Below are positions 33,501 to 61,547 of a DNA stretch of 64,000 nucleotides, piece after piece. Numbering within the stretch: position 1 is the first letter of the stretch; the number at the start of each line of letters is the position of its first letter. The notes below the pieces were generated by a model, which made no database searches, was not told the DNA's origin, and was given only the letters and a program-made list of their open reading frames with translations. Source of the DNA: an uncultured Nitrosomonas sp. (GTDB taxonomy: Bacteria > Pseudomonadota > Gammaproteobacteria > Burkholderiales > Nitrosomonadaceae); assembly GCA_949281375.1 (NCBI GenBank), contig CASDLT010000010.1, forward strand, positions 119,182-183,181, in the 5' to 3' direction. The position numbers were made by a program, and so were the translations under genes.

Positions 33501-33641
33501 GAAAATGCTGATTAATCCCGCAAGCGAGATGAAGCGCAAGGCGCACGGAGCGTAACAACCGACACATCAACACGGTAGGTGAAGGCGCGAGTACCACGCG
33601 ACAAAGCGATTCGCTCGCGCAGCGAATCAATCAGCGTTTCT
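33501..33641 (+). mobile_element. MITE-like repeat, copy A
   Basis: Ends gaaaatgctgattaat / atcaatcagcgtttct; core GAGATGAAGCGCAAGGCG; flanks TTAT/GTGA (degenerate). Confidence 0.8.
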
Positions 33642-33675
33642 GTGATAGTTTCATTGAAACGTCAATCGCCGTGAC

Positions 33676-34488
33676 TCATAAATGTTCGGTCACATCCATC
33701 GAGAAATTGCGCCGATCTTGATTGCTGGATTTCGTTTTCAACCTTTCGAGATCTTCGCTTAAGCGCACGGCTTCATCTCTTTTAATTTCATAGCATTCAC
33801 AAGCGCCGGTTTCCAGTTTCTTTCTGTCTTTAAGGGCTATGTAACCTCTACCATAGTCTATCATGCCTTCATCCTGTAACTTTTTTGCAGCCTCTGTGAT
33901 TGTTTCGCGCCGCACGCCAAGAATATATCCAATCGAAGCCTGAGTTATCGACAATGTATCCGTCGCCGCGCGATCAAAGCCGGTCAGCAACCATGTGCAT
34001 AACTGGCGGTCTACGGCGTGGCGGCGAGTACATGCAATGGTTTGTGACATGTGAACAAAAACAGATTCTGCATAGCGCAGCATCAATTCTCGAAAATTTC
34101 CCAGTCGACGGCCGCCGCTGCGTGTCAACACCTTCTGCAACGCATCAACGGAAATTCGATACGCATATCCGGCTTGATTGATAATAACCTGAGTCGAGGA
34201 TTCGTTTTTTCCCAGGAATGTCGAAAAACCTAACACTCCTTCCTTGCCAATCATAGCTACTTCCACGGTCGACCCATCTTCCAGGCAGCACAACATCGAT
34301 GCAATGACTGAAACGGGAAAATAGACATGACCCAGTTTTTCATTGACTTCGAATACGACCTCGGCCACTGACAGAGTCACTAATTCCAAATGAGGAGTTA
34401 ACTGTTCCAGTTCGGAATGGGTAAGTGCACACAAGAGATGATTTTCTCGTGGATCGCAAGTAATTACAGTCATAATTGTTTGATCCAT
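33676..34488 (-). CDS. Crp/Fnr-family transcriptional regulator (paralog 1)
   Basis: cNMP-like domain 'EVAMIGKEG', HTH 'ILGVRRETITEAA', 'ACECY'; no Fnr Fe-S Cys cluster. Confidence 0.9.
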   Translation of the reverse strand: MDQTIMTVITCDPRENHLLCALTHSELEQLTPHLELVTLSVAEVVFEVNEKLGHVYFPVSVIASMLCCLEDGSTVEVAMIGKEGVLGFSTFLGKNESSTQVIINQAGYAYRISVDALQKVLTRSGGRRLGNFRELMLRYAESVFVHMSQTIACTRRHAVDRQLCTWLLTGFDRAATDTLSITQASIGYILGVRRETITEAAKKLQDEGMIDYGRGYIALKDRKKLETGACECYEIKRDEAVRLSEDLERLKTKSSNQDRRNFSMDVTEHL

Positions 34489-35096
34489 TGAAAGTTGAAG
34501 AATTAATATTTTTGATTCATCGTAGATACTCTTCCATTCGGTTATGAACGAGTAAAAGACATTCGTATTGCATTATAGCCTGACACGATTCCTCGTGGGT
34601 CAAACTCGCCTTTTTATCCGCCACGGCTCTTGAAAGCTCAGCGGACTCAAAAGATTTCTGTAAAAGCGTGCGTTACGGTTAGCATGCGTGAAATCAGGCT
34701 TTTATGCGCGATCTCTGTTTCATGTTTTTGTAACCGCAACCACGCTCTTCAAACCTATCACTGTATCTGATCATGGTTCGTCATCGCTTCCATAAGGTCT
34801 AACATCAAATATCATGATCATTCTGGTCAGACTTAATTAATGGGTAGGCGTATAAAATCAATATCGCCGCAAACAAAGACTGTTCGTACAAATTTTCCAT
34901 TCAAAAGATATGCTTCACGCGTTCTTTCCAGCAATCGAACACTCTGTCAAAACCCCAAACTTGCGTGGGTAATCGTACAGACTCCTCCCCGCAGGCCAAG
35001 CACAATACTTTCATTTTATGGTGTCATGACAGGAAGATCTATGAGGTGCAATACAGGTAATCGACATGCAAACGCGATGTCAGTGGAAATCATTAG

Positions 35097-35238
35097 AGAA
35101 ATATCGATTAATTCACCGCATGAGCGAATCGCTTTTTTGCACGCTACTATCTTCCTCCCCTTCGGGTTGATAGGCCTCGGTTAATGCGTTGCGTGCATCG
35201 TACGTTTCATCTCTTTCGCCAAATCAGTCAACATTTCC
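35097..35238 (-). mobile_element. MITE-like repeat, copy B (diverged)
   Basis: Perfect TTAG duplication at 35093-35096 and 35239-35242; reverse strand has gagatgaaacg...aagcgattcgctc...attaatc. Confidence 0.7.
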
Positions 35239-35373
35239 TTAGTGATCCGATCTGGTTTATCAGCCCCATGGACGACTGTTGAATATTCACCTGCCTTTCC
35301 ATTTTCTTACGTTGTCTGCGTGATGGAAATGGATAGTTCCCAGGCAAATCAAACCCTTTGTTAATTTAGAAAT

Positions 35374-36666
35374 TTGCTGACCGAAATTATGAATGCTCCT
35401 TTTTTAAATGATCTACGCACATCTTATTCTTTGATAGAGCGCTTCCGGTCAGTCCGCATGCAGACAATGGCACTGTGCACACCATTGGAAACGGAAGATT
35501 ATGTCGTTTCAAGCATGGTCGATGTCAGCCCCACGAAATGGCATTTAGCCCATACCACGTGGTTTTTCGAGACCTTTATCATAAAACCTTATCTACCATC
35601 GTATCAAACATTCGACTCTCGCTATGCCTTTCTTTTCAATTCTTATTATGAACAGGCTGGCGCACGTCAGTGCAGATCGCTTCGCGGCTTGGCAACACGC
35701 CCGACCGTCACCGAGGTATTTACATATCGCAGTTATGTCGATGAAGCCGTTGAAAACTTGTTTGACAAGATTGACGATGATTGCCAGCACCCGGCCTGGC
35801 GAAAGTTGGAAATGGGACTGCATCACGAACAACAACATCAAGAATTACTACTGACCGATATCAAACATGTGCTCTGGACAAATCCATTGCGCCCAACCTA
35901 TCGCAACGACAGCGCGTCATCGCTGCATACAGCGTTTCAACGGCAGAGATGGGAGCCAATTGAAGAAGGCCTTTATATCATTGGCAATGCCGAAGATCAG
36001 TTCACATTTGATAACGAGCGGCCAGCACACAAAACCTATTTGCAGTCCGCAAAATTATCGCACTCGTTGGTCACTAATGCGGAATATTCAGCTTTCATCG
36101 CCGATGGGGGCTATCAAACCCCAGGATTGTGGCTGAGCGATGGGTGGAGAATGGTGCAATCAGAGCAATTGCGAGCACCTCTCTATTGGGAGCAGTACAA
36201 TGGCCAATGGCATGAATTTACCTTGCACGGTGAACTGCCCTTGTCTCCCACTGTACCCGTGTGCCACATCAGTTATTATGAAGCCGATGCATTTGCACGC
36301 TGGGCGGGGTATCGATTGCCGACAGAAGCGGAATGGGAAATCGTCGCAAATAGACATTCCACGCAACAAATTAACCTACAACAAATCAGTTTTCATCCCT
36401 CTCCCGCAAGTGATGATAATCATATTCAGCAATTGTTCGGCCAGGTTTGGCAATGGACACAGAGTCCTTACATAGCCTATCCGGGATTTTATCCCTCATG
36501 CGACGTACTGGGCGAATACAACGGCAAGTTCATGTGTGATCAATGGGTTCTGCGCGGTTCCTCCTGCCTCACGCCCCCCGGCCATACCCGCACGACGTAT
36601 CGGAATTTCTTCCCGAGTGATGCCCGCTGGCAATTCACTGGCCTTCGTTTGGCGGCCGATGGATGA
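35374..36666 (+). CDS. egtB: Ergothioneine sulfoxide synthase
   Basis: DinB_2 motif 'WHLAHTTWFFETF', iron motif 'HHEQQHQE', FGE-sulfatase domain, 'EYNGKFM'. Start may be ATG 35389. Confidence 0.92.
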   Translation: MLTEIMNAPFLNDLRTSYSLIERFRSVRMQTMALCTPLETEDYVVSSMVDVSPTKWHLAHTTWFFETFIIKPYLPSYQTFDSRYAFLFNSYYEQAGARQCRSLRGLATRPTVTEVFTYRSYVDEAVENLFDKIDDDCQHPAWRKLEMGLHHEQQHQELLLTDIKHVLWTNPLRPTYRNDSASSLHTAFQRQRWEPIEEGLYIIGNAEDQFTFDNERPAHKTYLQSAKLSHSLVTNAEYSAFIADGGYQTPGLWLSDGWRMVQSEQLRAPLYWEQYNGQWHEFTLHGELPLSPTVPVCHISYYEADAFARWAGYRLPTEAEWEIVANRHSTQQINLQQISFHPSPASDDNHIQQLFGQVWQWTQSPYIAYPGFYPSCDVLGEYNGKFMCDQWVLRGSSCLTPPGHTRTTYRNFFPSDARWQFTGLRLAADG

Positions 36667-37682
36667 ACAATACGCTGCTTCATTCCAACGGTATGCAGAT
36701 TGAGTTCGCTTCTTCATCATTGCCTAATTCATTGCAAGCAGCCGCGATCACCGGGCTTGAAAACAAATGCAAAACGCTTCCTTCCGCCCTTTTCTACGAC
36801 GCAACCGGAGCCCGCCTGTTCGAGGAAATCTGCAAATTGCCCGAGTATTATCCTACCCGCACTGAATCAACGATACTGCGTGACTATGCACCCCTACTCG
36901 CTTCCCATATTGGAACAGATGCGGTCTTGATTGACTATGGCAGTGGCTCAGGAGAAAAGGCGCAATTCCTTCTGGACTATTTACCATCCTTGAACGCCTA
37001 TGTTCCTGTTGATGTTTCACGTGAACAACTCATGCAAGTCGCTGCTGAGCGATCTGCTCAATATCCGCTTCTGCAAGTCCTGCCAATCTGTGCAGACTAC
37101 ACCGAACCGTTAGAATTTCCCAATTTACCGGATGGAGCGCGTTATATCGCCTTCTTTCCGGGATCAACTATCGGCAATTTTCATCCTTCTGATGCAGTGA
37201 CGTTTCTGACTCAGATTCGAAGTACCATCATGCCGGAAGGAAAATTAATCCTCGGTGTTGATCGCCGCAAACATCCGGATTTATTGCACGCTGCCTACAA
37301 TGACAAACTAGGGCTTACCGCCGCGTTTAATCTCAATATTCTGAGGCATCTCAATCGTGAAATGAATGCTAGTTTCAATCTATCGCATTTTCGTCATTTG
37401 GCATTTTTCAATGAGCAAACCAGCCGTATCGAAATGCATCTAGAATCGTTAGTCGCTCACCAGGCCACGATTAACGACAAATTGATTCAATTCGACGCCG
37501 GTGAAACCATCCGTACAGAATGCTCATATAAATATGATGAAGAAAGCCTGAGCACACTGGCAGAAGCGAGCGGATTTGAGATCGAAGAACTGTACACCGA
37601 TAGTCGCCAATGGTTCTGGATCGCATTATTGAGCCCATCTTCATCTTCGAATCAATATTGTCAAGAAACAACTTCGTTCTGA
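36663..37682 (+). CDS. egtD: L-histidine N(alpha)-methyltransferase
   Basis: Motifs 'LFEEICKLPEYYPTRTE', 'FFPGSTIGNF', 'AAYND' and 'TECSYKY'; ATGA overlap with egtB. Confidence 0.95.
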   Translation: MNNTLLHSNGMQIEFASSSLPNSLQAAAITGLENKCKTLPSALFYDATGARLFEEICKLPEYYPTRTESTILRDYAPLLASHIGTDAVLIDYGSGSGEKAQFLLDYLPSLNAYVPVDVSREQLMQVAAERSAQYPLLQVLPICADYTEPLEFPNLPDGARYIAFFPGSTIGNFHPSDAVTFLTQIRSTIMPEGKLILGVDRRKHPDLLHAAYNDKLGLTAAFNLNILRHLNREMNASFNLSHFRHLAFFNEQTSRIEMHLESLVAHQATINDKLIQFDAGETIRTECSYKYDEESLSTLAEASGFEIEELYTDSRQWFWIALLSPSSSSNQYCQETTSF

Positions 37683-37862
37683 ATGTCAGCAGGTTTCGAT
37701 TTCTCGTAATTCCACGCTTCAATCAATTGAATGATTTATTTCCGGATCCCGTCATTCCACGTTCATCATCCTCAAGTCCCATGTTATGTGGGGTTTCAGA
37801 CAGACTCCTCATTCTCTGAATGATAGCCTATGGTTTTATAATCTATAAACGTAGGGGAGCTT

Positions 37863-38093
37863 GTGATGAATAAAGAAATATCATTTAAAACTTTATTAAA
37901 CGATTTCAGCAATTGGTTAAACAATAAACACCATACCAAAACGAGTAAAAAAGCATCAATGCCAGACAAGCCAGCAGTCGAGTCTACCCTTGATGACACA
38001 CTGAATAGTCATCAACGAGTTCAACAGCAAACCAAATACGACCGTTACCATCCGCTCTATCTCCAGGATCGGGATGTGAATAGTCACTTCTAA
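37863..38093 (+). CDS. Hypothetical protein (75-76 aa)
   Basis: GGGGAG RBS upstream; no family recognised. Confidence 0.45.
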   Translation: MMNKEISFKTLLNDFSNWLNNKHHTKTSKKASMPDKPAVESTLDDTLNSHQRVQQQTKYDRYHPLYLQDRDVNSHF

Positions 38094-38342
38094 TATTCAA
38101 GAATTCAAGACGCTGAGACTATAAACGTAGAGCCCCCATTTTTTCGAGGGAGAGCGAACCCTTTAAATCCTATCTGTTCGAGCGCATCAATGCGTCAAAA
38201 CTTGACAATGCTGGATAGGGGACTGCAGAACCGCGGTATGGGCGGCACGTTATCTGCATGACAGTGGCAAGCTTTCGCTGATGGACAGTTCTTCGCATGG
38301 CTCAATTGGCACTTGGGGATCGAGTGGACGAAGTATAGGAAG

Positions 38343-38386
38343 CATTGAGAACTGATATCAATTTCATTGAGAACTGATATCAAATT
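38343..38386. repeat. 22-bp tandem duplication
   Basis: cattgagaactgatatcaattt then cattgagaactgatatcaaatt (21/22 identical). Confidence 0.9.
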
Positions 38387-38486
38387 ATTAGAGACCTAGA
38401 AACGATGATCAGAAGGGAGCGCAGCTAGTTATTCAATTTGAAAGGGAATTTTTAATTCCCATTATGAAATTACACTTGGATTTTTT

Positions 38487-38562
38487 TGGTGCCGACACCA
38501 AGAATCGAACTCGGGACCTTCTGATTACAAATCAGCTGCTCTACCATCTGAGCTATGCCGGC
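38487..38562 (-). tRNA. tRNA-Thr (TGT)
   Basis: Reverse complement GCCGGCATAGCTCAG...CTGAT-TTGTAA-TCAG...GTTCGATT...GGCACCA; 76 nt with encoded CCA. Confidence 0.98.
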
Positions 38563-38588
38563 AATGGATAAATCTTACACTAAATAAA

Positions 38589-39011
38589 TTATTTGATAAT
38601 CCGCAAATTAGTTTTTTTTAGACCTTTTTCTTGGTAAGTCATTGACTCAACTAAGTCAGTTTCTTGTGATTCAGTCACAAAAGCTTGATCGTCTGCTTCT
38701 CGATCTTCGACGGGAAATGATAAACCTTGATTCACTTCTTTGGCGAAAATGCCTTTGACTGCATGAAGAGGAATATCTAATTTACGTGGAACGCCATTAA
38801 AACGGGCCATAAAGCTGATATGGTGATTACTAATCACAAGATCATGCGCAGCCTGGAGGCCAATATTAAAAACGATCTCGTCATTAGTAACAAAATGCGC
38901 TGGCATATCAAGGTCTGGATAAACAACAACAGAAATATATGGCGTTAGATCACTATCGATACACCATTCATAAATCGCGCGAATCAAATACGGTTTCGTA
39001 GAGCCACTCAT
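38589..39011 (-). CDS. sspB: ClpXP adaptor / stringent starvation protein B
   Basis: Motifs 'STKPYLIRAIYEWC' and 'ARFNG'; C-terminal 'LRIIK'. Confidence 0.95.
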   Translation of the reverse strand: MSGSTKPYLIRAIYEWCIDSDLTPYISVVVYPDLDMPAHFVTNDEIVFNIGLQAAHDLVISNHHISFMARFNGVPRKLDIPLHAVKGIFAKEVNQGLSFPVEDREADDQAFVTESQETDLVESMTYQEKGLKKTNLRIIK

Positions 39012-39607
39012 TTTCGCATAACTTTCTCAGATGCTGATAGCGCAGCGATAAATGGAGGGCGGCTAAACAAACTTTCTGAATATTTTAATAGCGGCGCAGC
39101 CTGCTTTGGCAATCGAATTTCATAGTGCTCAAGGCGCCATAACAATGGCGCAATGGCAACATCCAGCATTGAAAATTCATCACCCAGCATGAATTTCTGT
39201 TTTTCGAACACTGGAGAAATAATCGTCAGATGTTCAGTAATTACAGTTCTGGCTTTCTCCATGGCTTTTTGATCAGCCCCTTCAAATGCACTGATATGAC
39301 AGAACAGTTCCTGCTCAAACCGATATAACAACAGCCGTGCACGGGCACGCATGACGGGATCGGCAGGCATGAGTTGAGGATGTGGAAAGCGATCATCGAT
39401 ATATTCATTGATGATATTCGACTCATACAGTACGAGATCGCGCTCCACAAGCACAGGCGCTTTTCCGTATGGACTGATGACGGCAAGATCTTCTGATTTA
39501 TTATTAGGATCAACATCAATTACCTGGAAATCCATATCTTTCTCGTGCAACACAATCCTACAACGATGACTGTATGGACACGTAATTGTTGAATATAACG
39601 TCATCAT
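39008..39607 (-). CDS. sspA: Stringent starvation protein A (GST fold)
   Basis: Motifs 'SHRCRIVLHEK', 'YESNIINEYIDDRFPHPQLMP' and 'APLLWRL'. Confidence 0.96.
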   Translation of the reverse strand: MMTLYSTITCPYSHRCRIVLHEKDMDFQVIDVDPNNKSEDLAVISPYGKAPVLVERDLVLYESNIINEYIDDRFPHPQLMPADPVMRARARLLLYRFEQELFCHISAFEGADQKAMEKARTVITEHLTIISPVFEKQKFMLGDEFSMLDVAIAPLLWRLEHYEIRLPKQAAPLLKYSESLFSRPPFIAALSASEKVMRK

Positions 39608-39655
39608 AACTTCTAATCTCTGACTTACTTTTGACTATCTACAAAAAAATTGATC

Positions 39656-40381
39656 CTAGTGAATATCCTTCCAATATTCTTTTTTCAAGAGATAAGCGAG
39701 CCCTAAGAAACCCAACAGAAAAATCATTACTTCAATACCAAGTTTTTTTCGTTCATTAGCATGAGGTTCGCCAAGATAAACCAAGTAGTTAACTAAATCA
39801 CCAACAAATTTATCAAAATCGGCTTTGCTCAATTGACCAGGCTTATCCAGAACTAGACTCTTTTGATCACCTTTCTCGGATGTCTTAACCACTAGTTTCT
39901 GTTCGCCTTGCAGTTCATATAAAACATGCGGCATTGCAGCACGATCGAATACAAGATTATTCCAGCCGGTCCCGGTTGAATCATCCCGATAGAAAGCACG
40001 TAAATAAGTATATAGCCAATCTGCACCACGGGAACGCGCGATCACTGACAAATCGGGAGGAACGACACCGAACCATTCTTCGCCCTCTTTTTTACGCATG
40101 GCTGATTGCATCAAGTCACCAACTTTTTGACCTGTGAGAACCATTTTTTCGAGGATTTCTTCATTCGTATAGCCGATATCCCGATGACGGTTATAACGCA
40201 TATAACTTGCACCATGACACGTCAAACAGTAATTAACGAAGGTTTCAGCGCCACGTTTCAGTGACGCATTGTCGGTAATATCAACAGGAGCTTTATCCAA
40301 TGGCATGCCAGATTCACCAGCCATCGCGCCGAATGAAGTCATGCTCAACAAGATCAATAATGTTATCGTTATTTTCTTCAT
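39656..40381 (-). CDS. petC: Cytochrome c1
   Basis: CLTCH heme motif, 'PPDLS', C-terminal TM. Confidence 0.97.
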   Translation of the reverse strand: MKKITITLLILLSMTSFGAMAGESGMPLDKAPVDITDNASLKRGAETFVNYCLTCHGASYMRYNRHRDIGYTNEEILEKMVLTGQKVGDLMQSAMRKKEGEEWFGVVPPDLSVIARSRGADWLYTYLRAFYRDDSTGTGWNNLVFDRAAMPHVLYELQGEQKLVVKTSEKGDQKSLVLDKPGQLSKADFDKFVGDLVNYLVYLGEPHANERKKLGIEVMIFLLGFLGLAYLLKKEYWKDIH

Positions 40382-40384
40382 TTT

Positions 40385-41632
40385 TTACTCTTTTAGTCTT
40401 TTTGGCTCAGGTTTCGTTTTGTCTATTTTGCTATACCAAGGCATCAAGATGAAAAAAGCAAAATAAATGACTGTAAAGATTTGCGCTAACAAGGTATACA
40501 GCGGGGTCGGCGATTTAGTTCCCAACCAACCCAACACAAAAAAGCTGATCACAAAAAGGGTCAGAGCTATTTTGAAAAAGGGTCCTTTATAGCGTATCGA
40601 TTTGACCGGACTTCTATCCAACCAAGGTAAGAAGCAAAAAATGACAACCGATCCAGCCATCAGAATAACGCCCCACAATTTCGCATCAATCCCAAGGAAA
40701 TTTACCGTCACTGCCCTCAGCATTGAATAGTAAGGGGTGAAATACCATACAGGTGCAATATGATCCGGGGTTTGCAACGTATTAGCAGGGATGAAGTTGT
40801 TATATTCGAGGAAATATCCGCCCATTTCAGGAGCGAAGAAAATAATTCCACAGAACACCATCAAAAAGACGACGACCCCAACAATATCCTTTACCGTGTA
40901 ATAGGGATGAAAAGGAATACCATCCACGGGTATACCAGTGGCTGGGTTTTTGTTTTCTTTTATTTCTACGCCATCAGGATTATTGGAACCGGTTTCATGC
41001 AATGCCAGAATGTGCACGAATACCAGCACGAGCAAAATAAGAGGCAAGGTCACGACATGATAAGCAAAAAAACGATTCAGCGCAGCATCGGAAAGCGTAA
41101 AATCGCCCAATAACCATTGTTGCAATATCTCACCAACACTTGGAATGGCGCCAAACATACTGACGATTACTTGCGCTCCCCAGTAAGACATTTGACCCCA
41201 CGGTAAAATATAACCTGTGAACGCCAAACTCATCAGCACGAAAAATATACACATTCCCACTAACCATAGAAGCTCACGCGGTTTCCGATAGGAACCGTAC
41301 ATCATTCCGCGGAACATGTGCAAATAAACTACGACAAAAAACATGGATGCACCGGTGGAATGCATGTAACGAATCAACCAACCATAATCCACATCGCGCA
41401 TAATGTACTCGACAGATGCAAAAGCTTGACTGGCATCTGGTTTATAGTTCATGGTCAGGAAAATTCCGGTCAACAATTGATTGACCAGTACCAGCAAGGC
41501 TAAAGAACCAAAAAAATACCAGAAATTAAAATTCTTTGGCGCATAGTATTCGGAAAGATGTGCTTTCCAGTTTGATGTCAATGGAAATCGTTTATCGATC
41601 CATCCAATCATTGAATTAAATAAGTTACTCAT
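40385..41632 (-). CDS. petB: Cytochrome b
   Basis: Motifs 'RYMHSTGAS', 'LPWGQMSYWGA' and 'PVWY'. Confidence 0.98.
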   Translation of the reverse strand: MSNLFNSMIGWIDKRFPLTSNWKAHLSEYYAPKNFNFWYFFGSLALLVLVNQLLTGIFLTMNYKPDASQAFASVEYIMRDVDYGWLIRYMHSTGASMFFVVVYLHMFRGMMYGSYRKPRELLWLVGMCIFFVLMSLAFTGYILPWGQMSYWGAQVIVSMFGAIPSVGEILQQWLLGDFTLSDAALNRFFAYHVVTLPLILLVLVFVHILALHETGSNNPDGVEIKENKNPATGIPVDGIPFHPYYTVKDIVGVVVFLMVFCGIIFFAPEMGGYFLEYNNFIPANTLQTPDHIAPVWYFTPYYSMLRAVTVNFLGIDAKLWGVILMAGSVVIFCFLPWLDRSPVKSIRYKGPFFKIALTLFVISFFVLGWLGTKSPTPLYTLLAQIFTVIYFAFFILMPWYSKIDKTKPEPKRLKE

Positions 41633-42247
41633 TTACGCAGATCCCTCGCTTTCAGATCCAATTAAAAGACGGTTATCACTCAAATACACATGAGGAGGCA
41701 CAACCATATTGGTTGGAGCCGGTACATTTTTATATACACGTCCAGCAAGATCAAATTTTGATCCATGGCATGGACAGAAAAAACCACCTAACCAATCCGG
41801 GCCCAGATCCGCTGGAGCCACATCTTTTCTGAATACCGGTGAGCAACCTAAGTGAGTGCACACTCCCTCTGCAACAAAAATTTCTGGCTTGATCGAACGA
41901 GTGCGATTTTTCGCATAGTCTGGCTGCTGTTTTTTTTCAGAAGCTGGATCAGCAAGATCACCCTCGACTTTTTGCAGACTTGCCAGCATGTCAGGAGTTC
42001 GATTTAAAACCCAAACAACTTTTCCGCGCCATTCAACCATTAACAGCATGCCCGGTTCAAGTTTGGAGATATCGACCTCTACTGGTGCACCGGCTGCCTT
42101 GGCTCTCTCGCTAGGCATCATACTTAACAAAAAAGGCGTTGCAATCGCAACGCCTGCAATTCCTCCTGCTACTGAAGTCGCAGCGACCAAGAACTTTCTT
42201 CTGCCACTCATCTCATCATCAATGCTGAAACTATCTGCCATATTCAA
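41633..42247 (-). CDS. petA: Ubiquinol-cytochrome c reductase Rieske subunit
   Basis: Tat motif RRKFL; CTHLGC and CPCHGS. Confidence 0.98.
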   Translation of the reverse strand: MNMADSFSIDDEMSGRRKFLVAATSVAGGIAGVAIATPFLLSMMPSERAKAAGAPVEVDISKLEPGMLLMVEWRGKVVWVLNRTPDMLASLQKVEGDLADPASEKKQQPDYAKNRTRSIKPEIFVAEGVCTHLGCSPVFRKDVAPADLGPDWLGGFFCPCHGSKFDLAGRVYKNVPAPTNMVVPPHVYLSDNRLLIGSESEGSA

Positions 42248-42526: not shown

Positions 42527-42665
42527 GGAAATGCTGATTAATTGATTGCACGAACGAACCGCCTCTTGCTTGGTACTCGCCACTCCCCCTATCTGATGGA
42601 TATGCCTGACTGCTGTGTTCCGTGCGTCTTACATTTCTCTCACGCATTTTATTATCAGCGCAACC
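42527..42665 (-). mobile_element. MITE-like repeat, copy C (diverged)
   Basis: End ggaaatgctgattaat; reverse strand has gcacggaacacagcag...gagtacc...gcggttcgttcg; flanks TTGA/TTAC. Confidence 0.7.
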
Positions 42666-42685
42666 TTACCGGCTATTTCTATCAG

Positions 42686-45418
42686 TTACTTAATCTTGCC
42701 ATGACATTGCTTGTATTTCTTACCAGATCCGCAAGGACATGGTTGATTACGTCCCACTTTATCATTATGACGTACGAACGGTTGTGACGTTTTATCAGTC
42801 CGGTCGTCGGCTGTAGCCTCTTCTTCTAAGGCGTCCCGATACTCAGCATGATGAAATTGCACATTTTCTGGCGCTTTCAAATTTTCTGTCACTGCTTCGA
42901 CCTGCTGTTCGCTTTGAATTTGAACTGTCAGCAGTATCTTAGTGACTTCATTCTTGATTTCTTCAAGCATCGTGGTGAATAACTCAAAGGCTTCACGCTT
43001 ATATTCCTGCTTAGGATTCTTTTGAGCATATCCTCGTAAATGAATACCCTGACGCAGATGATCCAATGCCGCCAGATGTTCCCGCCAGTGAGAATCGAGG
43101 CTTTGCAGCATCACTGCTCGCTCGTAATGATGCATGATGTCGGTTCCGACAGTAGCCACCTTTTGCTGATAGAGCGCATTGGCTGAATCAAAAATCCGTT
43201 GAAAAAGATTTTCTTCATGCAACTCAGGATCTTCCTTCAGCCATTGCTCAACGGGAAAATGCAACTGATATTCTGAAGCAAGCATTTTCTCCAAACCTGA
43301 TACATCCCACTGCTCCTCAACACTTCCGGGTGGGATGAATTGTCCAAAAACATTATCCAACACACTTTCCCGGATAGCGACAATAGTTTCAGATATATCA
43401 TGCTCTGCTTCCAGCAATTCATTTCGCTGCTGATAAATAACGTTTCGCTGATCATTGGCGACATCATCATATTCGAGCAATTGCTTACGCATATCGAAAT
43501 TTCTTGCTTCAACCTTTCGTTGAGCATTCTCAATAGCACGGGTTACCCATGGATGCTCGATCGCTTCACCTTCGGGCATTTTAAGGCGCGTCATGATATT
43601 GGCTACGCGATCTGACGCAAATATCCGCAACAATGGGTCTTCGAGTGACAGGTAAAACCGGCTGGAACCAGAATCACCTTGCCGGCCTGAACGGCCACGC
43701 AATTGATTATCCACTCTACGCGACTCATGCCGCTCAGTTCCAATGATGTGCAGTCCTCCCTTGTTGAGAACCTCTTCATGGGTAATTTTCCATTTCTGAT
43801 ACACATCCTCTATGCTTTTTTCTTTGGCTTCCTCGCTCAGTTTCTCATCCTGTCGGATGCGTTCAATTTCTGGCTCCGGATTTCCTCCCAAGACAATATC
43901 GGTTCCGCGGCCAGCCATATTGGTGGCAATGGTAATCATTTTAGGCCGGCCAGCCTGGGCAACGATACTTGCTTCACCGGCATGCTGCTTCGCATTCAGA
44001 ACCTGATGCGGCAATTTCTCTCTTTCTAGCAGCCTAGAAAGCAGCTCATTATTTTCGATCGATGTGGTACCTACCAGCACGGGCTGGCCCTGCTCATAGC
44101 ATTCTTTGATACCGTCGATAATCGCGTTATTTTTTTCCTTCGTCGTGCGAAATACCAGATCCATGCGATCCTCGCGAATCATCGGGCGGTGAGTAGGAAT
44201 TATGACGGTTTCAAGTCCGTAAATCTGCTGGAACTCGGCAGCTTCGGTATCGGCTGTACCAGTCATGCCTGATAACTTCTGATACATACGGAAATAATTC
44301 TGAAAGGTGATCGAAGCCAGAGTCTGATTTTCCTTCTGGATAGGCACACCTTCTTTCGCTTCGACCGCTTGATGCAACCCATCGGACCAGCGGCGGCCAG
44401 CCATCAACCGTCCGGTAAATTCGTCTACGATAACGACTTCGCCATTTTGCACGACATAATGCTGATCCAGGAAATAAAGACTATGAGCGCGCAAACCTGC
44501 ATTCAAATGATGAATCAAATTGATGTGCCCCGGGTCATACAAACTGGATCCCGACTTTAATAATCCTGCTTTCTCGAGCAGCTCTTCGGCATGTTCAAAC
44601 CCTGCTTCACTCATGGTGACCTGATGGGTCTTCTCATCCACACTGTAATCACCCGGCCCGTCTTCAGTCTCTTGCCGAATCAATTTAGGGATCAACGTGT
44701 TGATACGAACGTAAATTTCCGTATCACCTTCAGCCTGCCCAGAAATGATCAGAGGAGTTCGTGCCTCGTCAATGAGAATCGAGTCAACTTCATCGACAAT
44801 GGCAAAATTGAGCACGCGTTGCGCACGTTCCAGCGGATGGGTCACCATATTGTCACGCAAATAATCGAAACCGTATTCGTTATTAGTCCCGTAGGTAATG
44901 TCCGCGGCATAGGCTGCTTGCTTGTCGTCATGAGGCATCTGTGAATAAATCACACCTACGCTCATCCCCAGGAACTGATAAATTTTCCCCATCCACTCAG
45001 CGTCACGTTTAGCCAAGTAGTCATTCACAGTCACAATATGAACACCTTTGCCCGACAAGGCATTCAAATAGGCCGGCAATGTCGCCATGAGCGTCTTGCC
45101 TTCGCCGGTGCGCATCTCGGCAATCTTTCCTTCATGCAATACCATGCCACCGATAAGCTGCACGTCAAAATGGCGCATTTCCAGGACGCGTTTTCCTACT
45201 TCGCGCACAACAGCGAATGCTTCGGGCAAGATCGCGCTGAGTTCTTCTCCAGCTTGGACGCGCTGCTTGAATTCATCTGTTTTGGCACGAAGATCAGCAT
45301 TCGACAGTTCGGTCATCGTGGATTCCAACTCATTAATGACGCGCACAGTCTGGAAATACTGTTTGACCAAACGGTCATTACGACTACCAAAAATTTTTTT
45401 AAATAAATTGCTAAGCAT
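42686..45418 (-). CDS. secA: Preprotein translocase SecA
   Basis: 910 aa. Motifs 'MRTGEGKT', '[11 protein letters not shown]', 'NMAGRGTD' and SEC-C '[13 protein letters not shown]'. Confidence 0.99.
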
Positions 45419-53040: not shown

Positions 53041-53074
53041 TCAGCGCCATTAAATCGATGCTTTTTGCTCATAT

Positions 53075-53111: not shown

Positions 53112-53199
53112 AATGCACCATGACGCAATGCAAGTATCTTCTTCTTATTGTTGTTCGTTTTCTATTTCCTGGAATTTTTACTGATCCATCACGCGACGG

Positions 53200-54205: not shown

Positions 54206-54937
54206 TTGAATAGCCTTATGAAAACAGATGACAATCAAATTTCATTTCGAACCACGATCATTGTGCGCCTATTGATCGCTATCGCACTTTTTCTGCTGCT
54301 CGCAAACACAGGCGGGCAGTTTTTAAGATTCTTGGTAGGAGAGGACAATCCTTACTTGAGAAAATTGATTCTTCTCGTTCACTTCGATCATGAAGGCAAT
54401 CTTCCCACCTACTTTTCGGTTTTATTGCTCTTGTTAATCGCAGCACTCCTGGCGCTCATTGCCGAGCTAAATCGAAAGCACATGCATCCCCATGTATCGA
54501 AGTGGATGACTTTGTCAGGGGGATTTTTATACATCGCATTTGATGAAGCCTTCCAAATTCATGAAAAGCTAATTTGGCCATTTCAAAGGTTGATCGGCGA
54601 AGACAATCTGGGAATTTTTTATTTTGCCTGGGTCATTCCGGCAATTTTCATTGTGATCATGCTTGGTCTGTTCTTTTTGAAATTTCTGCTTTACCTCTCG
54701 GTGACAGAAAGAAATAGATTCTTGCTAGCTGCAGCGTTGTATCTCGGAGGAGCCATAGGAATGGAACTCATCGGAGGTCGTCACGTAGAGTTATATGGAG
54801 AAGAAAATTGGGGGTATAGCACGATCACGACGCTTGAAGAAAGTCTCGAGATGGCTGGCCTTATTTTCTTCATCTGGGCACTCCTGAAATATTGCGAAGC
54901 ACATTATTCAAGCGTTCAGTTCCATTTCAAGGCATAA
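54206..54937 (+). CDS. Conserved multi-pass membrane protein of unknown function
   Basis: About 6 TM; 'FDEAFQIHE' and 'LEESLEMAG'. Start may be ATG 54218. Confidence 0.75.
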   Translation: MNSLMKTDDNQISFRTTIIVRLLIAIALFLLLANTGGQFLRFLVGEDNPYLRKLILLVHFDHEGNLPTYFSVLLLLLIAALLALIAELNRKHMHPHVSKWMTLSGGFLYIAFDEAFQIHEKLIWPFQRLIGEDNLGIFYFAWVIPAIFIVIMLGLFFLKFLLYLSVTERNRFLLAAALYLGGAIGMELIGGRHVELYGEENWGYSTITTLEESLEMAGLIFFIWALLKYCEAHYSSVQFHFKA

Positions 54938-55032
54938 CGCACTTCATTTCCCATTAATCATGAGTTCTGCATATCAGCGTTATCGCGCGCTGCTCTGCTA
55001 GCCTGGAAAAACCATTTCATAAAAAAATAATC

Positions 55033-57225
55033 ATGCACTATCAATTTTTTGCCACTACCCCGAAAGCACTCGAAGGCATCCTTGCCAATGAAGTTGAAAT
55101 GCTCGGGGGGGAAAATGTACGGCAGAAGCTGGCAGGGGTGGCTTTTCAGGGGGATTTGGAAACCGCATACACAACCTGCTTATGGTCGCGCGTCGCCAGC
55201 CGCATTTTATTGCTGCTCAGCAGCTTTGAAGTTAAATCCCAACAGGATCTCTATGATGGCATTCAGCGCATCGATTGGTTTGAGCATTTGAATGCAAACG
55301 ACAGCCTGGCAGTATCCTTCAGCAGCAAAAATAACTCGGCAATCAATAACAGCCATTTTGGCGCATTACGCGTCAAAGATGCCATCGTGGACCAAATGCG
55401 CGCCAGATTCAATGTTCGTCCAAACGTCGATACCGAGCATCCCAGCATTCGAGTCAATGTTCATCTCCAGGATGACACGGCTCAATTGAGCCTGGATTTA
55501 TCTGGCGAAAGTTCACACCGGCGCGGCTACCGTGACATCAATATCGCTGCGCCGATCAAGGAAAATCTCGCAGCCGCCATTTTGTTGCGTGCTGGTTGGC
55601 CCGACATCGCCCGACGAGGCGGCACGCTGCTCGACCCGATGTGCGGTTCAGGCACGTTACTGATCGAGGGAGCGCTGATCGCCGGCGATATCGCTCCCGG
55701 CCTGCAACGCGATTATTTTGGGTTTCTAGGATGGAAACAGCATAACGCCACACTCTGGCAAAGCCTTCTTGAGCAAGCTCAACAGCGCCGCGATATCGGT
55801 ATGCACCAACTCCCCGTCATTGTCGGCTTCGATCAGGATCGCCATACCGTGTCAGCGGCATTGAAGCACATTGACAACGCCGGCTTGACAGGAAAAATTC
55901 ATGTCGAAAAGCGCGATATCGCCAGCGCATCCGCGTCTGAACGCTGGCCCAAAGGTTTGATCGTCTGCAATCCGCCCTATGGCGAACGCCTTGGCGATGA
56001 AGAAGAGGTTGCACTGCTGTACCGGAAATTTGGTGAAACATTGAAACAACATTTCTCTGGCTGGCAGGCAACCATTATTATTGGCAATCCTGAACTCGGC
56101 TTTAAATTGGGCATCCGTTCGCAACGGCCGATCACGATGTTCAATGGCTCGCTGGAGTGCAGGCTGTTGCGTTTCAGCATTGAAGAAAAAGCGTTCTTCG
56201 AACCGAAAACCCACTCCCAGCAGGAACGCATCGAGCATATCCGGCGGCGCGCGCATACCGAACAGGCGGATCAACAGGCGGAAATGTTCGCCAATCGATT
56301 ACGGAAGAATATCAAACGGTTGACCAAATGGATCAAGCAACATCAGGTGCATTGCTACCGGCTCTACGATGCCGATTTGCCAGAATTTGCGGTGGCTATC
56401 GATATCTATCATGGCGACGAAACCTGGGTTAATGTTCAGGAATACGAGTCTCCCAAAACCATCGATCCGGCAAAAGCCAATCAGCGCCTTGCTGCAGCAA
56501 TGGCCGTTATACCTCACGTGCTGAACATACCTGCGGAAAATATTTTCTTAAAAATACGCCGCAAGCAGAAAAGTACCGATCAATATGAAAAACAAGGCGA
56601 TTCACGCCATTTCCATATCGTTGAGGAAGGCGGATGCAAGTTCTGGGTGAACTTTGAAGATTACCTGGATACTGGCTTGTTTCTTGATCACCGTCCGCTG
56701 CGTCTTTTGCTCCAGGAACAGGCAAAAGGCAAGCGTTTTCTGAATTTATTCGCTTATACCGGCAGCGCCACCGTCCATGCAGCAGTAGGCGGCGCCATTT
56801 CCAGCGTCACTATCGATATGTCCAATACCTATCTTGCATGGGCGCAAAGAAACTTCGTCCTCAACGGCATCCAAGGTAATCACACGCTAGTGCGCGCTAA
56901 CTGCTTGAAATGGCTAAGCGATCAGGTTGACACCCATCAAAAAACACGCTTCGATTTAATTTTTCTTGATCCGCCCACTTTTTCCAATTCCAAAAAAATG
57001 GATGAAGCATTTGATATCCAGAAAGACCATGTGACACTGATACGTAATGCGATGAGTCTGCTCGCGGTCAATGGAACATTGTACTTCTCAACCAACTTCC
57101 GGCGTTTCAAAATAAATCACGAAGAACTGGGTAAGTTCAAGATCGACGATATCAGCAAAAGTATGATTCCGGAGGATTTCGCTCGCAACAGCAAAATTCA
57201 TTATTGCTGGAAAATTACTCATTGA
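55033..57225 (+). CDS. rlmKL: Bifunctional 23S rRNA m2G2445/m7G2069 methyltransferase
   Basis: THUMP domain plus 'DPMCGSGT' and 'NPPYGER' (RlmL); 'DTGLFLDHR' and 'DPPTFSNSK' (RlmK); 730 aa. Confidence 0.96.
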   Translation: MHYQFFATTPKALEGILANEVEMLGGENVRQKLAGVAFQGDLETAYTTCLWSRVASRILLLLSSFEVKSQQDLYDGIQRIDWFEHLNANDSLAVSFSSKNNSAINNSHFGALRVKDAIVDQMRARFNVRPNVDTEHPSIRVNVHLQDDTAQLSLDLSGESSHRRGYRDINIAAPIKENLAAAILLRAGWPDIARRGGTLLDPMCGSGTLLIEGALIAGDIAPGLQRDYFGFLGWKQHNATLWQSLLEQAQQRRDIGMHQLPVIVGFDQDRHTVSAALKHIDNAGLTGKIHVEKRDIASASASERWPKGLIVCNPPYGERLGDEEEVALLYRKFGETLKQHFSGWQATIIIGNPELGFKLGIRSQRPITMFNGSLECRLLRFSIEEKAFFEPKTHSQQERIEHIRRRAHTEQADQQAEMFANRLRKNIKRLTKWIKQHQVHCYRLYDADLPEFAVAIDIYHGDETWVNVQEYESPKTIDPAKANQRLAAAMAVIPHVLNIPAENIFLKIRRKQKSTDQYEKQGDSRHFHIVEEGGCKFWVNFEDYLDTGLFLDHRPLRLLLQEQAKGKRFLNLFAYTGSATVHAAVGGAISSVTIDMSNTYLAWAQRNFVLNGIQGNHTLVRANCLKWLSDQVDTHQKTRFDLIFLDPPTFSNSKKMDEAFDIQKDHVTLIRNAMSLLAVNGTLYFSTNFRRFKINHEELGKFKIDDISKSMIPEDFARNSKIHYCWKITH

Positions 57226-57258
57226 AATTACTGCTTGGTACTTACCGCAATTCATTAA

Positions 57259-57398
57259 GAAAACGCTGATTAATTTGCCAAACGAACATAACGCTTCGTT
57301 GCTGGGTACTCGGCCCTCGCCTACCGTTTAGTAGTCCTGGTTGCTGCGTTCGATTCGCCTTGCGCTTCATCTCGTTCGCCAGATTAATCAGCATTTTC
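57259..57398 (-). mobile_element. MITE-like repeat, copy D
   Basis: Ends gaaaacgctgattaat / attaatcagcattttc; flanks TTAA/CTAA; core cgccttgcgcttcatctc. Confidence 0.85.
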
Positions 57399-57440
57399 CT
57401 AAAGAACATCAGGTAATATTTGCACCCAGCCTCATGGTCA

Positions 57441-57641
57441 TTATGACATTTTTGGCTTTCTTGAACCTCGTATGAATGTATCAATCAAATAACTCAAATA
57501 CAACGTAAGAATGATATCGGATAACACCCAGCCCATCATTGATTCCGGTAATTCGAAAGTCAACATGATGTTATAAAAGACCATACCAACAATCATTATT
57601 CCAATGATCATAATTTCATGATTTTTCATAAAGATCTCCAA
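57441..57641 (-). CDS. Small two-TM membrane protein
   Basis: Two hydrophobic segments and a basic tail; GGAG before ATG 57641 (57629 also possible). Confidence 0.6.
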   Translation of the reverse strand: MEIFMKNHEIMIIGIMIVGMVFYNIMLTFELPESMMGWVLSDIILTLYLSYLIDTFIRGSRKPKMS

Positions 57642-58185
57642 CTCATAAGTAATGATAAGGCAAAAAAGTGAAAAAATAATAAAACTTCACAAAATTTTCA
57701 CATATTATTCACAATAAATTTACATTTGTCTAGATGCAATCCCACCTTTAACTAAAAATGCGATAACGCTGACCGATAAATCTTTTGAGATTAGATGAAA
57801 GAATTTCAATCGCATGGCCAACATCATTCAAGCCAGGCTTTGAGAACAATTATGAGTTTGTGCAGCTGTGGGGATATTTTGAATTAGAACAGTATTTACC
57901 CGATTGTTTCGGATTGAGTCGGCCTGATTCGAGAAAAAAGGAATCTCGGCCGTATTAATGCTGGGGGTGTGAATATAACCGGCAATTACAATTCGATGAA
58001 TCAGATGTGAGCGGAAGCCTCAAGAATGAAACAAAAATGTTTTGCTTCTTCGCCACGGTGAAGTGCGGCCATAGCCGCATAGTATCCAACTCATGTGCAG
58101 TAAAATTGCACTAATTGATCTCGCTACCTCTACCTCTCATGAATGGCGATGGAATTAAGTAACTGCAGGAAGAATAATGATGACA

Positions 58186-58926
58186 TCAAGCAACTTTTTT
58201 CGATTCTTTCTTACCCACAAACAAACCTTGTTGAATGGTCTTGTAGCATTCACATGCTTTGTGCTCGAGAAGCAGTTTATTCTTCAGTTCCATATGGCCT
58301 CGGCGATAATTGATAATCCCGTTCAATTGAAATTTCCGCGCTAGCTCGGTAATGCTTTCACGCCGGACGCCCAGTAAATATCCGATCGTTTCGTGCGTAA
58401 TCGACAAATCCGTTGAGTCCAGGCGCTCGAACGTCAACAATAACCACCGGCTTAGCCGTTGTTCCAGGGTATGGCGGCAATTGCACACAGAAATCTGTGA
58501 AACATGCACAAGGAATGTTTGCGCGTATTCCAGCATCAATGTTTTAAGCATCCCGGCGCGACGCCCGCCACTGCGAGCGAGCAATTCTTTCAATACCTTG
58601 ACTGACATTTTATAGGCATAGCCTGCATGACTGATAACCGCCTGTGAAAAAGCCACATTCTTATTCAGTATCACGGAAACATCCAGAAAGCCCTCCTTAC
58701 CGACCATTTCAATCTCTACGGTCGAACCATCTTCAAGCGAGCATTGCAGGGAAGCGAGTGCATTAACAGGAAAATAGATAAATTCAATTTTCTCATTAAT
58801 TTCGTACAGAACCTCTGCTTGGGAAAGCGATATCAATTCCAAATGTGGAATCAACGCTTCAAGCTCAGCTTGAGGGAGTTCTTTCAAAATGTGGTTCTCA
58901 CGTGGATCGAATGATTTTATCAGCAT
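58186..58926 (-). CDS. Crp/Fnr-family transcriptional regulator (paralog 2)
   Basis: Clearly homologous to 33676-34488, sharing 'LEDGSTVE', 'RSGGRR', 'GVRRE' and 'ACECY'. Confidence 0.9.
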   Translation of the reverse strand: MLIKSFDPRENHILKELPQAELEALIPHLELISLSQAEVLYEINEKIEFIYFPVNALASLQCSLEDGSTVEIEMVGKEGFLDVSVILNKNVAFSQAVISHAGYAYKMSVKVLKELLARSGGRRAGMLKTLMLEYAQTFLVHVSQISVCNCRHTLEQRLSRWLLLTFERLDSTDLSITHETIGYLLGVRRESITELARKFQLNGIINYRRGHMELKNKLLLEHKACECYKTIQQGLFVGKKESKKVA

Positions 58927-59445
58927 TATCTTCTCCTTCTTTTGGGGAAATCATTAACCAAGCACCTATAAAAACTCACATGAATTTGGTAAGAATGATT
59001 TTTTTACGAGTCATCAAATGTGAAGCTATTTAATTAGAAATCGAGTCAAAAGAAAATAGGAGGAACTACGTAGTAAAGTCAGAAAATTAGAGAAATCCGG
59101 TTGATGAATTCGTCATCAACATCGAGGGTATTGATCCAGGAACAGGAATAAGAACTTGTATTTGATCAGCAATTCCACGAATGGCACGAATTCCACAACA
59201 AGCTTTTAACATCGTCGCGAGTCGGCGCTTTTTAGGCTTTTTATATTCTTAAAATCAATTGGTTATCGTTTTAAAGCTCTGAAATGCGAAATGGATGTGT
59301 TCAACAATCTAAATCTATGTATAAATACCTATCGACGTCTGAAAATATTTTTAAAAAATTTTTCAGTATTCATTTTCAATGAAAATTTCTTTGCTGACAG
59401 AGAGTAAAACCATCAAGCAGCGTCTGTTTGATCAGCATCTGTCCA

Positions 59446-60060
59446 TTAAAACGTGACATTGTGCATTGTGCATTGACTCGCAAGTTCAAGAAAACTACTG
59501 CTCGTCATTTTTTTTAAAATTTGAGTGCGGTGAATTTCCACAGTGCGGGCGCTAATATCCAATTGATGAGCGATTTCCTTCGTCGCGTTACCGGCAAGAA
59601 CCAGTTGCAAGATTTGCTTCTCTCGGGCGGACAATGTATTGAATTTCTGCAGGAAGAGTTTTTCGGACTCCAATTCATCATTGTTTTGCGATTGTTTTTG
59701 TAATTCAACCTGAATGCAATGAAAAATATCTTCGATGGCTACGGGTTTCGTGAGGAAATCCACTGCGCCGGATTTCATTGCCTGCACCGTAATGGGAACA
59801 GTGCCATAAGATGTCAGAAAAATGATCGGCAAGCGAATGTTCCGCCGCTCAAGCTCGGCCTGAAGCTCAATTCCGTTCATTCCAGGAAGATTGAGGTCCA
59901 GCACGATACAACCCGACAATTCCATGTCGAATCTTTCGAGGAACTCCTCCGCGCTGCTAAACAACTGGCAATCGATATCCACTGTCTCGAGCATCAACTG
60001 CAAGCTGTCTCGAATGGCCTCATCGTCGTCAATAATGAATACACGTGTGGGTTGCGTCAT
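59446..60060 (-). CDS. FixJ/LuxR-type response regulator
   Basis: DDD, 'VLDLNLPG', 'FLTKP' and HTH 'ISARTVEIHRTQILKKM'. Confidence 0.93.
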   Translation of the reverse strand: MTQPTRVFIIDDDEAIRDSLQLMLETVDIDCQLFSSAEEFLERFDMELSGCIVLDLNLPGMNGIELQAELERRNIRLPIIFLTSYGTVPITVQAMKSGAVDFLTKPVAIEDIFHCIQVELQKQSQNNDELESEKLFLQKFNTLSAREKQILQLVLAGNATKEIAHQLDISARTVEIHRTQILKKMTSSSFLELASQCTMHNVTF

Positions 60061-61028
60061 GACTCAAACGGTAGCGTAAATTTAATGCACAGTCCTTTCC
60101 TGGCATTCTGTTCCGCCCATATTTTTCCGCCATAAGATTCTACCAATGTTTTGCTGATCGGTAAGCCCATTCCTATGCCATTGGCTTTGGTCGAATAAAA
60201 GGGTTTGAAAAGCTGGTGTAACGCGCTGCTATCAGAAACGCCGCGCCCGTCATCGATCACAGCAATTTCAACCAACTCGGCCTTTGGGGAAGGCAGCGCA
60301 GTGACTATCGTCAATGTCCGGGCGTTTTCCTTGTTATCCTCCATTGCTTCGAGCGCATTCATGACCAGCGCGATGATGACCTTTTCGATATGCAGCGGAT
60401 TGACTGAAACTCTCCGCAAGTTCTTGGACAGCTTCAATTTAATGGTTATGTTGGATAAATCTTCCGTAACGCGCATATAGCTAAGGGCGCTATTGATGAG
60501 TATATTGATGTCCGAAGAGGTATTGCTTATTTTCTCAGTGCTCAAGAAAATCATTAAATGCTTGATGACATCTGTGGCGCGTTGCGACTGATCACAGCAT
60601 TTATTGATAATGTCCTTTATTTTGATTAAATCTGGATGCTCTGCATCCAATGATTTCTTCAATACAAAACTATAAAATGATAATGCGGTAAGAGGCTGGT
60701 GTAACGCATGCGCAATGACGATCGCCGTCTGATTTGAAACATAGAATTCGGTAAACTTTTCGATCGTATGGCGTTTTTTTATCAGCTCCCGATGATCCAG
60801 AAAATGAGTGAATCCTGAGTTGTTACTCATCGCAACGTTAGAGGATTTCGGGACATTCTGGCTTACATTCTGTTGAGAAACGACATAGGGATGCAAACCA
60901 TCACCATAGGTCAAGTAAGCGGGTTTCTCAGACTCTACGCATTTGAAAATACCATCGTGCTCTAAGCGCAGGTTTCGTTCAGGCGTTTGCTTGAGCCATT
61001 CAGTCCAACTAATGGGCATTTTTTCCAT
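60057..61028 (-). CDS. FixL-like histidine kinase without TM/PAS input domain
   Basis: H-box 'IAHALHQPLT', G1 'DDGRGV', F/G2 'FKPFYSTKANGIGMGL'; 4-nt overlap with the regulator. Confidence 0.8.
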   Translation of the reverse strand: MEKMPISWTEWLKQTPERNLRLEHDGIFKCVESEKPAYLTYGDGLHPYVVSQQNVSQNVPKSSNVAMSNNSGFTHFLDHRELIKKRHTIEKFTEFYVSNQTAIVIAHALHQPLTALSFYSFVLKKSLDAEHPDLIKIKDIINKCCDQSQRATDVIKHLMIFLSTEKISNTSSDINILINSALSYMRVTEDLSNITIKLKLSKNLRRVSVNPLHIEKVIIALVMNALEAMEDNKENARTLTIVTALPSPKAELVEIAVIDDGRGVSDSSALHQLFKPFYSTKANGIGMGLPISKTLVESYGGKIWAEQNARKGLCIKFTLPFES

Positions 61029-61400
61029 TAAGCGATACCAGTTTATTAGGGCTCATCAGTTTTATTTGAGCCGTTATTGAATTCTAATACGATCAGCCAA
61101 CGAAATAGCAGAGAAAATCCCTGAGTACAGAACAATTCATGAAACGATTACAGGATATGTTTCATTGCCGAGTAAGAAAAAGTCATTTTTTGCGGATTTC
61201 TCATAACCTGAGTAGAAACGAATCATAGAGCGTACTGTCGAATCTGGTCTGCATCCAATGAAGAAGTAATATGAATAACAACCCAAAAATGATAAAAGTA
61301 ACTCAGGCCAAACGTTTTCCCAGTTCGTAAGAAATTTATAAAATTCCAAATGACCGGGCAGCGATCTTGAATAGGAAATAAGCATTACTATGTAGCCTAA

Positions 61401-61547
61401 TTAAATGCTGATTAATTCGGCGATCGAGATGAAGCGCAAGGCGTACGGAACCAAGCAACCGAGATCTATCAACACCCTGGGTGAGAGAGCGGGTACCATG
61501 CAACGAAGCAATTCGTTCGTACAACTAATTAATTCATCAGCATTTCC
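61401..61547 (+). mobile_element. MITE-like repeat, copy E
   Basis: Perfect CTAA duplication at 61397-61400 and 61548-61551; core GAGATGAAGCGCAAGGCG; end catcagcatttcc. Confidence 0.85.

Follow-up and report, generated by a model that had tools for sequence, protein, structure and literature searches.

Why do five related repeats of about 140 bp occupy the spacers of a single 64-kb stretch of an uncultured Nitrosomonas sp. genome, and are they maintained by the host or left behind by a mobile element? [quoted passage not shown] The explanation that we favor, with a probability of roughly 85% for the explanation as a whole, is that the repeats are decayed copies of a 143-bp type II MITE with IS5-type ends.

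Termini, target sites and a candidate partner

A profile built from the five window copies was searched with nhmmer against their own assembly, a 3.04-Mb draft of 57 contigs (labelled G000 below; other G numbers denote relatives or sampled genomes and L numbers denote loci). The search returned 91 matches on 31 contigs, 73 of them full length (~143 bp), so the family does recur many times across the genome, as the first-pass annotation had anticipated; from 91 matches per 3.04 Mb about 1.9 copies would be expected per 64 kb, and the window holds 5. The 143-bp consensus has 19-bp terminal inverted repeats (TIRs), starting with GGAAATGCTGATTAATTCG and ending with the complement of GGAAATGCTGATTAATTCG, and it retains all of the motifs previously noted as common to the five copies, namely the ends GGAAAYGCTGATTAAT, the core GAGATGAAGCGYAAGGCG, GAGTACC and GCAACGAAGCGATTCG. 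Within the window the elements measure 139-147 bp and carry no gene, and the consensus folds into one long irregular hairpin (-61 kcal/mol). The same genome also contains a 47-bp mini-copy (contig C40:86950-86996; L007:151-197) in which the two terminal repeats follow each other with hardly any interior; it is an internal-deletion derivative of the MITE.

The flanks of the 73 full-length copies show a YTAR consensus on both sides. Among the 14 copies whose flanks both remain YTAR, 12 have the same Y on the left and on the right, and inverted agreement is disfavored, indicating a direct 4-bp target duplication rather than a longer inverted repeat. Perfect 4-bp duplications were present at 40 of 60 young copies fetched from two relatives, G005 and G030, and 38 of these 40 were YTAR (TTAG 15, CTAA 11, TTAA 8, CTAG 4 and two others). 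Together with TIRs that start with GG, these counts uphold the earlier assignment of IS5-type ends with a YTAR duplication. Elements of the IS5 group, as compiled in ISfinder and exemplified by Escherichia coli IS5, are ~1.0-1.5 kb long, have ends that start with GG and duplicate 4 bp at YTAR or CTAG. The MITE resembles them in its ends, which start with GGAA, and in its 4-bp duplication at YTAR, but differs from them in being 143 bp long and gene-less, with only ~20 bp of each end in common.

Resident copies are strongly diverged from one another (median pairwise identity ~69-70%), in line with the earlier description of the window copies, and their identity to the own-genome consensus is 82.5% (17.5% diverged), compared with 91.6% in G005 and 98.6% in G030, which indicates that the burst in this genome is old. 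The copies of G005 and G030 outscore every copy of the window's genome against the family model. Of 36 genomes sampled from the genus, 19 contain the family, several of them with dozens of copies, and the presence of 29 copies in G060, a member of another family of the same order, points to horizontal spread. A scan of named genomes with a 25-nt piece of the element recovered Nitrosomonas sp. Nm166, Nitrosomonas metagenome-assembled genomes (MAGs) and one unclassified proteobacterial MAG. Finally, the spacer between secA and the gene for a Rieske Fe-S protein is without the element in the nine nearest relatives and aligns around a gap covering the window copy at 42527-42665 (copy 3 below), a pattern consistent with a putative insertion of this copy in the present lineage.

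A candidate partner for the MITE is a 1,195-bp IS5-group insertion sequence of G005 (L081:1008-2202), which occurs in seven identical copies. A perfect 4-bp duplication flanks every one of them, with CTAA at four copies, CTAG at two and CTCT at one, so that six of the seven are YTAR. Like members of the IS5 group, it encodes a single protein, a 327-aa DDE transposase that scores 336.6 bits against the NCBIfam IS5-family model NF033581 and contains the Pfam domains DDE_Tnp_1 and DUF772; the nearest plasmid-borne relatives of this transposase are annotated IS5-family transposases with up to 73% identity. The right inverted repeat of the insertion sequence matches the right end of the MITE at 20 of 20 positions and the left end, in reverse reading, at 18 of 19, and blastn detected no similarity between the two elements beyond the terminal 19-20 bp. 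Because both MITE ends are right-end-like and the interior is unrelated, the element is classed as a type II MITE, as defined in a review of bacterial MITEs (PMC10969869), and not as a deletion derivative. The first-pass annotation had looked to a transposase with matching ends as a sign of mobility, and the G005 element, with the same YTAR 4-bp duplication, supplies one.

Transposase homologues with at least 90% identity are present in G005, G030, G032, G022 and G013. With the G005 element as query, neither blastn nor tblastn detected a match in the window's own 99.99%-complete assembly; this lack of such a transposase sets the genome apart from carriers of ordinary IS5-group elements and, together with the 82.5% identity of the copies to their consensus, agrees with the earlier view of an old, non-autonomous family. 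Three PF01609 (DDE_Tnp_1) matches exist in this genome, all at contig ends, and only one is a complete open reading frame (ORF), a 323-aa transposase at C21:215-1186 (L002) on a 3.5-kb contig. This ORF was considered as the partner and rejected (best BLASTP E-value 0.023 over 35 aa, hence no real similarity to the G005 transposase), and it probably belongs to a different, collapsed insertion sequence. A search of the own genome for an autonomous partner by its TIR pattern gave, outside the MITEs, only chance-like matches or remnants.

In the mechanism that we propose, both MITE termini would be copied from an IS5-group insertion sequence, in each case from its right inverted repeat, and the DDE transposase of that insertion sequence would, judging from the shared ends and targets, cut and paste the MITE in trans into YTAR sites with duplication of 4 bp. 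The copies in the present genome would then be immobile fossils, marking an extinct burst of an IS5-group element.

The hairpin interior between and within genomes

Among 150 genomes drawn evenly from the whole phylum, full-length matches were obtained in 13 genomes with a model trained on Nitrosomonas (R1) and in 22 with a model made from diverse members (R2), the latter spanning 17 of 98 genera. The conserved part is an interior of ~100 nt that forms a long irregular hairpin. The terminal tips of distant elements differ (GAGCTTGTGAATAAATC, GGCACCTCTAAAAACC, AAAACGGTGAATAGGCC, TGAAAGCGTC and others), and the tip classes show a partial likeness in the inner portion of the terminal repeat. The duplications can differ as well, as in the GAGCTTG class of G249, which has 3-bp duplications (perfect in 8 of 10 copies) instead of the 4-bp YTAR; no partner insertion sequence was found for this class in G249, and its solitary ends share no upstream sequence. 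A blastn comparison of the core with plasmid and phage collections gave no match.

The interior contains nearly invariant blocks, GCAAGGCGCACGGAGCGCAGCGAC and GAGCACCGCGCAACGCAGC for example, that are separated by variable stems. Compensatory double changes occur in 17 of 20 predicted pairs among 18 diverse sequences, in which pairing reaches 94.2%, compared with 76.0% in shuffles and ~24-37% when partners are slid. Insertions and deletions between lineages are symmetric in both arms, so that pairing is kept and not a reading frame. Across lineages G·U exceeds A·C (26 versus 10; p = 0.011), and the sense strand of the element is 61-65% purine; the fold is accordingly better on one strand. The interior of a MITE is commonly regarded as filler, yet the one described here is kept, with covariation, in ~15% of the sampled genomes of the phylum. 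Two further arrangements were seen among related elements. At L194:581-869 (G249) a single 3-bp duplication (TGA) stands between two copies of the GAGCTTG-tipped relative, which are arranged head to tail, and at L098:640-860 on the minus strand (G060) a core relative with another terminal sequence type carries a ~65-nt insertion in its right arm and lies ~0.7 kb from a DDE transposase gene.

Within the window's genome the resident copies decay regardless of structure. When the consensus fold was mapped onto an alignment of 60 resident copies, 82.4% of cells were paired, compared with 81.7% after shuffling partners between copies, and RNAalifold recovered only 6 pairs; the covariation that the first-pass annotation had proposed to look for among the copies is thus not seen. 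The few double changes trace to sub-family markers, changes from the consensus to G·U and to A·C are equally frequent (224 each), and sense and antisense strands do not differ in fold energy (-42.3 versus -41.7 kcal/mol). Rfam at gathering score gave no match in the window apart from a tRNA, and at E-values up to 1 it gave no relevant match to 12 copies taken from six genomes. In the two copies scanned (copies 1 and 2), nothing resembling a promoter or a terminator was found inside the MITE. Accordingly, the suggestion that these copies were retained as structured RNA or regulatory DNA finds no support.

Since the interior is constrained between lineages and resident copies decay neutrally, the hairpin apparently serves the spread of the element itself and not the host. 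It may be a cis-acting foldback on one strand that brings the ends together or recruits a host factor, and we favor such a cis-acting role of the core in mobilization, for example in synapsis of the ends or in recruiting a factor; the core may instead act at the RNA level, or harmful orientations may simply have been filtered out. A more specific proposal, which we advance tentatively and hold at somewhat below even odds, is that the ~100-nt interior is a functional, strand-specific structured module (RNA or single-stranded DNA) that persists as a MITE chassis across classes of Proteobacteria, its outermost 6-10 nt having been repeatedly re-fitted to whichever IS5-family transposase was available, with the 4-bp YTAR duplication of one class and the 3-bp duplication of another as the outcome. 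The conserved bulges GCAAGGCG ... GCAACG would in that case be a recognition site for a host or transposase factor, either boosting mobilization or acting on carrier transcripts. There may be a precedent for selection on a MITE interior, and not on its ends alone, for mobilization efficiency: Yang et al., in Science in 2009, reportedly found that the interior of Stowaway MITEs, which are hyperactive eukaryotic elements, enhances transposition. The kingdom and the transposase superfamily are different, so any parallel with Stowaway would be functional only. Because the interior is conserved between lineages in which tips and duplication length change, and resident copies decay freely, selection on the element can be separated here from selection on the host, and the family offers a simple system for asking what a MITE interior contributes to spread.

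Other MITEs linked to the IS5 family include BrickBuilt of Porphyromonas gingivalis (PMC4596501) and MITEPsy of Pseudomonas syringae (PMC3189936). The Nitrosomonas family is like both in being small, multi-copy, intergenic and able to fold into a hairpin, and like type II MITEs in general in that its likeness to an autonomous element is limited to the terminal repeats. It is set apart from them, on the basis of published descriptions and not of sequence comparison, by an interior that covaries across classes of Proteobacteria and by the joining of this interior to differing tips and duplication lengths, for which we found no report in either case. Literature searches by organism, keywords and the literal core sequence found no description of such a Nitrosomonas MITE family or core; the Pseudomonas fluorescens repeats of PMC2718517 are presented without sequences in the text and were therefore left uncompared. 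Taken by itself, the Nitrosomonas family adds one more ordinary member to a known kind of element, and the covarying, strand-asymmetric interior with exchangeable tips is, to our knowledge, an undescribed variant.

Placement relative to genes and alternative explanations

Statistics of placement, which rest on crude ORF calls, show that 15 of the 73 full-length resident copies abut a stop codon exactly, as do 16 of the 60 young copies from G005 and G030; for the resident copies, the availability of YTAR sites would predict 9.5% (p = 0.004). This abutment is explained by the YTAR target, which contains TAA or TAG and is regenerated by the duplication. For example, three young copies (L128 and L130 in G005 and L181 in G030, with the element at 1501-1643) lie between the stop codons of two convergent genes that evidently shared one YTAR site (TAA/TAG on opposite strands), and in each case the 4-bp duplication left both reading frames intact. 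Between co-directional genes, elements oriented in the same direction as the genes outnumber the others 33:12 (p = 0.0025), a bias that GC skew does not explain; the ratio falls to 28:13 and 26:14 with stricter ORF cut-offs and is 23:13 in young copies. Convergent spacers are mildly enriched (21 copies versus 14 expected) and divergent spacers mildly depleted (12 versus 19.5 expected), and the replication-strand bias is weak (33 versus 49; p = 0.10). Under the type II MITE explanation, the fossils would persist only where their harm is small, in spacers and preferentially at the 3' ends of genes.

Could purifying selection against harmful insertions by itself account for both placement and orientation, with the core merely inherited and functionless? 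The candidate harms are polarity or the anti-Shine-Dalgarno-like CUCCCUC on the antisense strand. Such selection would fit the stop-codon abutment, which follows from the target sequence, the orientation bias, which is weaker in young than in old copies, and the neutral decay of resident copies. It leaves unexplained, however, why compensatory pairing and invariant bulges are kept while tips and duplication length change, and we therefore consider it unlikely that nothing further is involved.

We regard as improbable the alternative that the host keeps all or many of the copies as structured RNA or regulatory elements, such as 3'-UTR hairpins, terminators or sources of small RNAs. Correia elements duplicate TA, and the sequences of enterobacterial repetitive intergenic consensus (ERIC) and Correia elements are unrelated to the MITE described here, but all are imperfect palindromes of 100-200 bp that lie in spacers. 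Genes and ERIC or Correia elements frequently share a transcript, and there are reports that the effect on mRNA depends on the orientation of the element (PMC10969869); host roles of this sort have been described for ERIC, Correia and QMITE elements, and the review lists such roles for other MITEs. The enrichment at gene 3' ends, the orientation bias that lacks a GC-skew explanation, the purine-rich sense strand and the excess of G·U over A·C across lineages all lean toward host retention. Against host retention, pairing among the resident copies is no better than in column shuffles, post-insertion changes produce G·U and A·C equally in copies that are now 17.5% off consensus, neither an Rfam family nor (in copies 1 and 2) a promoter- or terminator-like site was found, and the orientation bias shrinks with stricter ORF calls. 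Neutral decay of the resident copies also separates this family from ERIC and Correia elements.

The possibility that the element is a type I MITE, an internal-deletion derivative of the G005 insertion sequence, has in its favor the identity of the terminal 19-20 bp to the right end of that sequence. We consider it very improbable, since a likeness of the interior to the parent was sought by blastn and none extended past the terminal 20 bp, and since both ends resemble the right repeat instead of one left and one right. Palindromes of the REP/BIME or REPIN kind, mobilized by a transposase of the RAYT (Y1) type, or palindromes arising by chance would likewise be intergenic, palindromic and multi-copy, but they are contradicted by the defined 19-bp TIRs, the direct 4-bp duplications, a DDE-type partner that shares ends and target with the MITE, and E-values down to 1e-38, and can be set aside with very little doubt.

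For the favored explanation, a type II MITE mobilized by an IS5-group transposase, several observations weigh on the other side. Insertion sequence and MITE are linked by sequence logic. The youngest burst is that of G030, and there 2-3 of 16 positions distinguish the ends of the resident insertion sequence from those of the MITE; in the MITE-rich genomes G004, G031 and G011, all fragmented drafts, no close transposase homologue was seen. The nine relatives used for the secA spacer share only ~79% DNA identity in conserved genes, and exact insertion or excision junctions cannot be read from them. For the covariation of the interior, 0 of 500 shuffles reached any observed measure, but the aligned rows are related sequences, so this control overstates significance. 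Finally, the modest tendency of copies to point the way their neighboring genes do hints at an RNA-level effect that a purely selfish element does not need.

The five copies in the window and their neighbors

The family matches inside the window are the five copies only, and their coordinates and strands, as placed by the covariance model or by nhmmer, agree exactly with those of the first-pass annotation. All five align with one another over their full length, and their nhmmer E-values (1e-31 to 1e-38) are among the best in the genome. ORFs with Pfam domains flank every copy, so that all five are intergenic, as had been described. For annotation, the family amounts to ~90 unannotated spacer elements in this genome, two of them in divergent promoter regions of the window (copies 2 and 5).

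Copy 1 (33501-33641, plus strand, 141 bp; 127 bits with the covariance model) has decayed flanks (TTAT/GTGA) and lies 35 bp downstream of the stop codon of a Crp/Fnr-type regulator gene (33676-34488, minus strand) and upstream of a gene for a KGG-repeat stress protein (32912-33283, minus strand), antisense to both. Copy 2 (35097-35238, minus strand, 142 bp; 120 bits) occupies the divergent spacer between the same Crp/Fnr-type gene and a gene with FGE-sulfatase and DinB domains (35374-36666, plus strand). Its flanks form a perfect 4-bp duplication that reads TTAG on the plus strand (35093-35096 and 35239-35242) and CTAA/CTAA in the orientation of the element. Copy 3 (42527-42665, minus strand, 139 bp; 71 bits), the most decayed copy, also has decayed flanks and is located 20 bp downstream of the stop codon of secA (42686-45418, minus strand) and upstream of the Rieske Fe-S gene (41633-42247, minus strand), in the same direction as both.

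The remaining two copies, with nhmmer coordinates and E-values of 1e-35 to 1e-38, are copy 4 (57259-57398, minus strand, 140 bp) and copy 5 (61401-61547, plus strand, 147 bp, its right terminal repeat containing a small insertion). Copy 4 is flanked by TTAG and TTAA, a near-perfect duplication, and lies between a convergent rlmL/K-type methyltransferase gene (55033-57225, plus strand) and a Crp-like gene (58186-58926, minus strand). Copy 5 has a perfect CTAA duplication at 61397-61400 and 61548-61551 and lies in the divergent spacer between an 82-aa ORF (61137-61385, minus strand) and a GAF-histidine kinase gene (61655 onward, plus strand). The two perfect and one near-perfect duplications reported previously are therefore those of copies 2, 5 and 4, respectively.

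Both Crp/Fnr-family regulator genes of the window (33676-34488 and 58186-58926, each on the minus strand) have a MITE in the 3' flank, copy 1 and copy 4, and the promoter region of the first also holds copy 2. The sole Rfam match in the window is a tRNA gene at 38490-38562 on the minus strand (66 bits).

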